Shown in pieces: positions 2,610 to 2,774 of a stretch of 10,882 nt of DNA (positions are counted from its first letter, which is position 1; each line of letters begins with the position of its first letter). The stretch is from IMG/VR virus record IMGVR_UViG_2681813320_000023; one strand, 5' to 3'. This DNA is from a virus (lineage: Duplodnaviria; Heunggongvirae; Uroviricota; Caudoviricetes). The translations under genes and the position numbers were made by a program. The notes beneath the pieces were generated by a model, which worked only from the letters and a program-made list of their open reading frames with translations, was not told the DNA's origin and did no database searches.

Positions 2610-2686
2610 TGTGATTCAGTATACACAAAAAAGAATCACAAAAAACACTTGACCTGTGATTCAGTTGAATTTAATTTAAATCACAC
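2610..2686. promoter_or_regulatory. Divergent promoter/operator region: TGTGATTCAGT direct repeat (2610-2620, 2655-2665), inverted half-site GAATCACA (2633-2640), candidate sigma70 promoter TTGACC (2649-2654) - 17 bp - TAATTT (2672-2677)
   Basis: Read directly from the sequence. The repeats overlap the putative -35/-10 spacer of the rightward promoter and a TATACT -10-like element on the minus strand upstream of the RHH-like gene. Confidence 0.45.
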
Positions 2687-2774
2687 CTCAGTAAGAGGAT
2701 GTAAACGACAACGCCCCGAACTGTTTGCGGCAGTAGCGGGGCGTCTAACCAAACCGTTAACAGGAGTAACGATT

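Follow-up and report, generated by a model that had tools for sequence, protein, structure and literature searches.

A predicted cis-antisense RNA over the start of an Icd-like gene in an Escherichia coli phage satellite and its relatives in Enterobacterales

Introduction

A stable hairpin lies in the leader of the first of two small open reading frames (ORFs) with Icd-like products in a 10,882-nt stretch of caudoviricete DNA (IMG/VR record IMGVR_UViG_2681813320_000023; the whole stretch is called the window below, and all positions and strands refer to it unless another record is named). The question raised by this locus is to which RNA, if to any, the hairpin belongs. The first-pass annotation, which was made from the letters alone, read the hairpin as an element of the plus-strand leader and suggested an antisense RNA of the C4/CI type. 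The comparison of homologs described here points to an RNA of another kind. The flagged hairpin is best explained as the second stem-loop (SL2) of a free-standing small RNA (sRNA) of ~80 nt that is antisense to the Icd-like ORF1 and represses it in cis, in the manner of sar or SymR, and we put the probability of this reading at about 0.6. An antisense RNA over the first Icd-like ORF is thus likely, with a length of ~80 nt and with the hairpin inside it, as the annotation had supposed, but it would be cis-encoded on the opposite strand and would not be of the C4/CI type.

The flagged hairpin and the strand under selection

The hairpin itself is exactly as it had been claimed, with the arms ACGCCCCG (2711–2718) and CGGGGCGT (2737–2744) separated by 18 nt (2719–2736), and the two flanking motifs reported with it, a Shine-Dalgarno (SD) sequence AGGAG at 2762–2766 and TAATTT at 2672–2677 (17 bp after TTGACC, 2649–2654), are also confirmed in the sequence. 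Folded in isolation, the hairpin reaches −21 kcal/mol (z = −3.16), and none of 200 dinucleotide shuffles was equally stable. Its interior contains a conserved and covarying 3-bp inner helix (CTG 2721–2723 with CAG 2731–2733), so that the true apical loop is only 7 nt long. The hairpin is not a chance feature. The complementarity of 5–6 nt that had been proposed between its loop and the downstream ribosome-binding site (RBS) amounts to CUGU/ACAG at most, and such a pairing is unsupported because the loop and the flank of the RBS both vary freely among the homologs.

About 170 homologous loci were compared. Among distant BLAST matches, window 2708–2796 is conserved alone in otherwise unrelated records, which include a Klebsiella phage and IncR/IncF plasmids that carry it upstream of BrxR-BREX. 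Two sets of homologs were assembled: the first, of 43 distinct sequences, was anchored on the unpaired spacer CTNACCAAACCGTTA, and the second, unbiased set was anchored on ORF1 codons outside the RNA and comprises 93 distinct sequences, 57 of them without the first anchor. The stem occurs in covarying versions such as ACGCCCCG/CGGGGCGT, AAGCCCGG/CCGGGCTT, ACGCCCCAA/TTGGGGCGT, and ATGCCCCG/CGAGGCAT.

The departures from Watson–Crick pairing are strongly strand-asymmetric. The stem cells of the unbiased set hold 1754 Watson–Crick and 164 G·U pairs when read on the minus strand, and G·U pairs on the plus strand number only 3; in the first set of 43 sequences, 47 minus-strand G·U pairs stand against two on the plus strand. 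Nearly all of the non-Watson–Crick cells are A·C or C·A on the plus strand, which correspond to G·U on the minus strand. Over the same 12 pairs, 88.4% of cells are paired on the plus strand, with a covariation of 0.256 and 13 extra pair types, whereas the minus strand reaches 98.1%, 0.426, and 20 extra pair types, respectively, and the observed values were matched by none of 500 shuffles. Since a transition in a G-C pair is a priori about as likely to leave G·U on the one strand (and A·C on its complement) as the reverse, the asymmetry indicates selection for pairing in a minus-strand RNA and speaks against both a leader element of the plus strand and a site that acts as DNA. The structure is regarded with high confidence as a minus-strand RNA element, and the view of the hairpin as part of the plus-strand leader gives way to one in which its pairing is kept by selection on the other strand.

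Architecture of the predicted antisense RNA

A covariance model, R1, was built from the 93 unbiased sequences, which derive from viral contigs. Its sole strong match in the window is at 2781–2699 on the minus strand (83.6 bits, E ~4e-20), compared with 12.6 bits on the plus strand, and delimits a predicted cis-antisense RNA of ~80 nt that consists of two stem-loops and a U-rich tail. The minus-strand fold from 2784 to 2698 has the same two hairpins, with a minimum free energy of −32.3 kcal/mol (z = −4.42), and RNAalifold recovered both SL1 and SL2 from the unbiased alignment, with compensatory change in 12–13 of 21 pairs.

The first stem-loop, SL1 (2749–2778, minus strand), is drawn by RNAalifold with outer pairs 2776–2778/2749–2751 and an inner stem 2767–2771/2755–2759. 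The outer pairs, CCA/UGG, hold the complement of the start codon, and the inner stem reads CGUUA/UAACG. The 7-nt loop (2760–2766), CUCCUGU, is an anti-SD sequence, and CUCC or CCUC is found in this loop across the whole family. The stem covaries as well: alignment pair 36–46 is UA in 89 sequences and AU in four, and pair 33–49 occurs as CG, UG, or UA. The second stem-loop, SL2 (2710–2745, minus strand), is the flagged hairpin and forms a terminator-like 3′ stem-loop, with the outer stem 2711–2718/2737–2744, a further pair G2745–U2710, and the inner helix 2721–2723/2731–2733. Its stable, GC-rich outer stem of 9–10 bp (−21 kcal/mol) would suit an intrinsic terminator. After U2710 follows the 3′ tail GUCGUUUACA (2700–2709, minus strand), whose family consensus is Y-G-Y-N-N-U-U-U. 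U is present at tail positions +6 to +8 in 85, 82, and 75 of the 93 sequences, the first 10 nt contain 5.5 U on average, and many homologs have long U-runs, for example UGUUUUUUUAG in Klebsiella phage P12620-1. SL2 was not called by a simple terminator scan, partly because the loop and stem rules of that scan exclude interior loops. Indels of 1–3 nt are found among the homologs in the linker and the loops, which excludes a conserved minus-strand ORF; a 43-aa ORF at 2812–2681 was rejected because these indels break its frame.

The presumed target, ORF1 (2775–2972, plus strand), encodes an Icd-like protein of 65 aa (NCBIfam NF033153, phage_ICD_like, 64.8 bits against a cut-off of 25). It is annotated as a coding sequence (CDS) by RefSeq in a genome that is 99.8% identical to the window, and it is the first gene of the rightward (replication) operon that leads to the primase. 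The RNA span 2781–2699 takes in both its ATG (2775–2777) and its SD (AGGAG, 2762–2766), so that the RNA is fully complementary to the leader, the SD, and the AUG. In the mRNA, the SD lies within the loop of the mirror-image hairpin, opposite the anti-SD loop of SL1. The geometry is that of a classic cis-antisense repressor.

Test of the model in independent genomes

An independent set was obtained from an ORF-anchored scan of species-representative genomes, which gave at least 120 matches, none of them used to build R1. In this set, R1 found 80 full-length matches (47–94 bits) in 80 loci, and every one of them lies on the strand opposite the ORF and overlaps its ATG. The resulting alignment, which is itself fitted to R1, has 98.9% of its cells paired and two-sided change in 12 of the 21 pairs, values that none of 500 shuffles matched. 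Helix 4 (SL2) is 99.3% paired, with eight of its 10 pairs changed on both sides, and two-sided change is seen in three of the four pairs of helix 3 (SL1).

Candidate antisense promoter

A candidate −10 hexamer, TATGCT (2793–2788, minus strand), lies inside ORF1 codons 5–7. The pattern TAnnnT is present in 93 of 93 sequences, as TATGCT (60), TAGACT (21), TATCAT (6), or TACTAT (6), and T1, A2, and T6 of the hexamer are retained despite amino-acid changes in the overlapping codons (QH, QS, HD, HS). After the hexamer come 9 nt that differ widely among the sequences (31 variants), and then the conserved RNA begins. A conserved hexamer, a variable stretch, and a conserved RNA form the pattern expected of a −10 element, a discriminator, and +1, from which a transcription start site (TSS) at about 2779–2781 is predicted. 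Since the 5′ half of SL1 covaries, the TSS must lie upstream of 2771, and TATGCT is the only TAnnnT hexamer in range of such a start. An antisense promoter at this position is likely. Two alternative −10 hexamers were rejected. CATAAT, over the start codon, does not conserve T6 and would start the RNA within SL1, in contradiction to the SL1 covariation; TAAATT, further upstream, fails as a general solution, being missing from the window's own subfamily and less consistently kept.

Relationship to the C4 immunity circuit

The first-pass annotation had put forward a search of 2600–2800 with the Rfam C4 covariance model as a check of its C4/CI proposal. That search was run with lax filters and gave no match at the hairpin at E ≤ 10, so the proposal is refuted by its own check. 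No Rfam family was found at the hairpin on either strand, in the whole window at E ≤ 10 or in a lax scan of the 161-nt slice 2670–2830, and only weak matches at chance level (CRISPR-DR39, RF00043, and PK-repBA) appeared in these scans. The C4 (RF01695, clan CL00128), c4-2, and a1b1 models had no match in 2670–2830 at E ≤ 10.

A genuine C4 RNA is located further downstream, at 3120–3207 on the plus strand (Rfam C4, 72.6 bits; gathering score 45), together with a c4-a1b1 element at 3003–3052 on the same strand (Rfam, 46.8 bits) and an isrK-like element at 3016–3094 (Rfam, 35 bits, below threshold). The a and b sites of the window were mapped by means of the annotated a/b sites of P1. The plus-strand circuit extends over 3003–3429 and includes a1 (3038–3044), b1 (3053–3059), a terminator-like hairpin (~3066–3094), b′ (3165–3172), a′ (3178–3184), a2 (3209–3215), and b2 (3240–3247). 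The b2 site overlies the SD of ORF2 (3259–3429, plus strand), a second Icd-like ORF of 56 aa (NCBIfam NF033153, 53.7 bits), so that the ORF under C4 control here, as in P1, is the second Icd-like one. The ORF1 leader contains neither a TTGACAG nor a CATCTGG site, every a/b site being located at 3038–3059 or 3209–3247. Complementarity to C4 is not better than chance for the ORF1 leader (z = +1.24), in contrast to the ORF2 leader (z = −2.46); the RNAduplex energies between C4 and the leaders are implausibly large and serve only as relative z-scores, and the exact mapping of the a/b sites was relied on instead. C4 and a1b1 were absent from all 15 other hairpin-module loci scanned with cmscan, which replaced a blastn search for a downstream C4 (three matches) whose sensitivity was doubted. 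P1 immI and P4 carry C4 and lack the module (R1 ~10 bits). Judging from these comparisons, the hairpin is neither a C4 RNA nor a C4 target, and the window would stack two RNA controls on successive Icd-like ORFs, first the predicted cis-antisense RNA and then C4.

P4 shares the downstream arrangement of an isrK-like element followed by C4/CI. The Rfam model of isrK, an sRNA of Salmonella Gifsy-1, matches the leader of phage P4 (L323, 8615–8692) just upstream of the CI RNA with 60.8 bits, above the gathering score. In view of this match and of that in the a1b1–terminator segment of the window, IsrK seems to correspond to the segment of C4-type immunity leaders that holds a1/b1 (seqA) and the terminator. 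In addition, a 154-aa "Icd-like" CDS of RefSeq (window 2965–3429) crosses the a1b1 element, the terminator-like hairpin, and the C4 RNA gene; the true ORF2 is almost certainly 3259–3429, with its SD beneath the b2 site.

Proposed mechanism and competing explanations

If the RNA acts as a cis-antisense repressor, transcription would start 3–6 nt inside ORF1 from the −10-like TATGCT (2793–2788), run back over the start codon, the SD, and the 5′ leader of ORF1, and end in the U-rich tail past SL2, at about 2700. The contact between the anti-SD loop of SL1 and the SD loop of the mRNA would extend to a full duplex over the RBS and the AUG, which would block the initiation of ORF1 translation. The duplex may also trigger cleavage by RNase III, or Rho polarity on the untranslated leader, and the convergent promoters, ~95 bp apart, would add transcriptional interference. 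While the divergently encoded repressor occupies the TGTGATTC/GAATCACA repeats, the RNA would silence the few transcripts that escape repression, and strong rightward transcription upon induction would override it. The RNA probably keeps the cell-division-inhibitor-like ORF1 silent in this way.

Several features weigh against this account. The −35 region of the candidate antisense promoter is poor (TTGTGT at a spacing of 17 bp, 3/6 at best, 7/12 overall), for which reason a consensus scan reports no antisense promoter, and the majority subfamily lacks TTG in the −35. The conserved T-Q-T codons may account for part of the conservation upstream of the −10 (GAGTTTGGG). As a terminator tail, the sequence past SL2 is non-canonical, in that the U-run starts 3–5 nt past the stem and the UGUCGUUUAC of the window is poor; the corresponding A-run of the plus strand might rather be part of the region where the ORF1 mRNA begins. 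A mirror-image plus-strand hairpin, moreover, is unavoidable in the mRNA and might have its own function.

The main rival, which is partly compatible with a repressor sRNA and does not exclude it, is that leftward transcription continues past SL2 into the YlcI/YnfO-family repressor gene, much as transcription from lambda PRE passes antisense through cro into cI. The minus-strand RNA would then be the 5′ portion of a longer transcript, with SL2 serving as an attenuator or stabiliser. The repressor gene is indeed located downstream on the same strand, ~120 nt away in the window, and in 155 of 205 loci the module is preceded by a divergent regulator that belongs to this one broad YlcI/YnfO-like family; the tail past SL2, non-canonical and weak in the window, fits read-through too, and the poor −35 suggests an activator-dependent promoter. 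However, the conservation of the module stops directly after the U-rich tail, the promoter/operator DNA between regulator and module is unrelated from locus to locus, no conserved element joins SL2 to the repressor start, and in many homologs a very stable GC stem is followed by a strong U-run. Read-through is on the whole unlikely, if still to be taken seriously. The hairpin may alternatively be a 5′ untranslated element of the ORF1 mRNA, for instance a stabilising hairpin at the 5′ end or a processing site. In most loci, it lies ~5–30 nt from the likely plus-strand TSS, and the plus-strand fold is stable too, as any antisense structure is mirrored in the mRNA. An element of the mRNA is nevertheless improbable, given the wobble asymmetry (47 vs. 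2 and 164 vs. 3), which is the signature of selection on the other strand, the lower pairing on the plus strand (88.4% vs. 98.1%), and the R1 scores (12.6 vs. 83.6 bits).

A perfect inverted repeat beside a promoter/operator region also calls to mind a DNA-level element, such as a protein operator or a cruciform, or a hairpin that arose by chance. Conserved half-sites would not be expected to change with compensation as these arms do, strand-asymmetric wobble is unexpected for DNA, and neither the 200 sequence shuffles nor the 500 column shuffles contained one that folded as well or reached the observed covariation, respectively, which makes this explanation very improbable. Least credible of all is the C4/CI-type RNA, processed from a leader that encodes it on the same strand. 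The window does contain a C4-type immunity region with a real C4 close by, and an 8-mer of one hairpin arm is complementary to the basal stem of C4; this match is coincidental because the hairpin arms covary freely. Against such an RNA stand the lack of an Rfam match, the selection on the opposite strand, the a/b targets, which all lie around ORF2, and the mutual independence of module and C4 in the 15 other loci on the one hand and in P1 and P4 on the other.

Gene context in the satellite

The window is 99.8% identical to a chromosomal region of E. coli NMBU-W12E19 and, judging from its gene order, is a chromosomal phage satellite of E. coli with the layout of a capsid-forming phage-inducible chromosomal island (cf-PICI). 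In RefSeq, the corresponding region starts with an integrase, an AlpA-type regulator, and a YlcI/YnfO-family gene divergent from the Icd-like genes, continues with DUF4222, a DUF927 primase, SSB, and PerC, and ends with major capsid, prohead protease, portal, head-closure, and HNH genes. The AlpA of the window is supported by Pfam, and the Pfam search gave no family for ORF1, ORF2, or the divergent repressor, all three of which were identified by NCBIfam instead. The YlcI/YnfO-family regulator gene is at 2282–2587 on the minus strand (NCBIfam NF041551, 65.7 bits).

Between this gene and the module, a candidate rightward promoter, TTGACC-17-TAATTT, can be read directly from the sequence at 2649–2677 on the plus strand (−35 at 2649–2654, −10 at 2672–2677). 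Its consensus score of 8/12 is under the threshold of the simple promoter scan. Such a promoter would start the ORF1 mRNA near 2684 and would be convergent with the antisense promoter. Two operator-like inverted repeats were found, TGTGATTC/GAATCACA at 2610–2617/2633–2640 and TGACCTGTGATT/AATCACACCTCA at 2650–2661/2679–2690, the latter bracketing the candidate rightward promoter. The inverted repeats around the divergent promoters are likely binding sites of the YlcI/YnfO-family regulator.

Two further observations concern the annotation and replication of the satellite. An annotated "pseudogene" at 1839–2396 simply continues the ORF1 frame in the upstream direction, where it overlaps the repressor gene of the opposite strand. 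Directly after the DUF927 primase gene, the iteron GGTGAACAGT/ACTGTTCACC recurs at least 11 times, with copies in each orientation, within an AT-rich stretch (5865–6109) that is probably the replication origin of the satellite. Spurious matches to plant and animal microRNAs in the Rfam scan are due to these iterons.

Distribution of the module

The module is carried by satellites, prophages, and plasmids across Enterobacterales. Among the loci listed for the independent set, the genera include Xenorhabdus, Photorhabdus, Proteus, Providencia, Pectobacterium, Dickeya, Erwinia, Pantoea, Serratia, Rahnella, Klebsiella, Enterobacter, Kluyvera, Sodalis, Brenneria, Limnobaculum, and others, and the genomes often hold several copies of the module. 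In E. coli, blastn detected the element in at least 377 of 5426 complete genomes, including those of O104:H4 C227-11, whose copy is 84% identical, and O111:H8, at 393 places on chromosomes and 32 on plasmids. Strain 300709 is a further E. coli carrier. Among the E. coli blastn matches listed, none lies over an annotated RNA gene.

Some copies occur in particular surroundings. On resistance plasmids, the module stands together with a small divergent gene of ribbon-helix-helix/YlcI-like type directly upstream of a WYL (BrxR-type) gene and BREX (L004, 3001–3087, pCTXM-2248, IncFIA/IncR; L005). In 12 of the 213 copies of the module, the Icd-like reading frame does not stop after 60–125 aa as usual; its N-terminal part, over the candidate antisense promoter, is joined in frame to an ORF of ~812 aa. 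In Klebsiella phage P12620-1, an int-alpA RNA (RF02996, 63.6 bits) was found at 334–401 of record L001, in the same element as a module copy, and the window contains no such match.

A prior description of the RNA was not found in Rfam 15, RefSeq annotation, a 2025 review of phage-derived sRNAs, or the satellite papers examined; most subscription journals were outside this search, so an earlier description is possible. A literature search with the sequence string matched only vector and primer sequences. Esr41 was considered as the identity of the RNA and ruled out, being a trans-acting RNA encoded in SpLE1. The feature is most aptly regarded as an apparently undescribed, widely distributed cis-antisense RNA family of a known kind.

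Comparison with known systems and significance

Among characterized regulators, SymR of E. coli, sar of P22, and the PaskilA antisense transcript of P1 come nearest in function. SymR overlaps the RBS and the start codon of symE and blocks its translation (PMC4147584). The symE/SymR pair, an atypical type I toxin–antitoxin (TA) system, resembles the module predicted here in having a short cis-antisense RNA over the RBS and start codon, a promoter (in the window a candidate one) within the first codons of the target, and a target protein that is non-hydrophobic and potentially growth-inhibiting. No sequence or Rfam relationship exists between SymR and the window RNA, and whereas symE is an SOS gene, the target in the window opens a satellite replication operon that is under a divergent repressor. 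Type I TA systems in general have a small toxin, usually hydrophobic, whose translation an antisense RNA blocks; ORF1 is Icd-like and not an obvious membrane peptide, and the Icd of P1 is annotated as a cell-division inhibitor.

In phage P22, sar is a cis-antisense RNA of ~69 nt whose promoter is convergent with Pant and which is complementary to the RBS of the antirepressor gene ant. It works beside the protein repressors Arc and Mnt in the secondary immunity region (immI). The combination of a protein repressor with a short antisense RNA over an RBS is common to both loci, which differ in the target (ant instead of an Icd-like gene) and in its position (the arc–ant intercistronic region instead of the 5′ end of an mRNA); no homology between them was detected, in comparisons that did not include P22 itself. 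C4 of P1/P7 and CI of P4 likewise act in an immunity or early operon with Icd-like leader ORFs, where the RBS of an Icd-like ORF is controlled by RNA pairing. These RNAs are encoded on the same strand as their targets, are processed from the operon transcript, and are tRNA-like with a CCA end and two short pairing loops; the window RNA, in contrast, would come from the strand opposite its target and be complementary to it throughout, folds differently, and does not match the C4 model.

The P1 promoter PaskilA (P53as) offers another parallel, as it is annotated to produce an antisense RNA from inside the 5′ region of kilA, the first gene of the early replication operon, and is convergent with the repressor-controlled P53. 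It differs from the window element in locus and sequence and is not matched by R1. The PaskilA RNA is longer and acts mainly by transcriptional interference. In addition, the R1162/RSF1010 antisense RNA (RF00043) covers the RBS of a replication gene as a countertranscript of 75 nt and shows a weak architectural echo of the element (hairpin, UAACCA, SD hairpin, AUGGCU). The window element is not a member of that family, the RF00043 match being on the plus strand (2709–2782) with 17.5 bits and E = 0.53 against a gathering score of 55. The RF00043 consensus itself contains GGAG...AUGGCU, that is, an SD and a start codon, and the model therefore seems to be written in mRNA-sense orientation.

The phage satellite literature examined (PICI, cf-PICI, and P4-like) mentions no RNA regulators and describes regulation through AlpA, repressors, and helper-encoded inducers. 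A bolder proposal, which we consider speculative and rather doubtful, is that the antisense RNA, the Icd-like ORF1, and the divergent YlcI/YnfO-family repressor constitute a three-part portable switch shared by cf-PICI/P4-like satellites, prophages, and IncR/IncF plasmids across Enterobacterales. The antisense promoter might then do double duty through a leaky SL2, providing both an RBS-blocking sRNA and lambda PRE-type establishment of the repressor, or the module might be a type I TA-like addiction module built on a division inhibitor. If true, this switch would add an RNA layer to the control of satellite induction, beyond the models centred on AlpA and repressors.

The sequence comparisons place a strongly covarying RNA at the RBS of the first replication-operon gene in hundreds of E. 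coli genomes, in many genera of Enterobacterales, and on resistance plasmids beside BREX. If real, the RNA would correct the genome annotation, which is presently blank at this site, would be a ready candidate for a new Rfam family, and would constitute a new and easily testable control point for the quiescence and induction of phage satellites.

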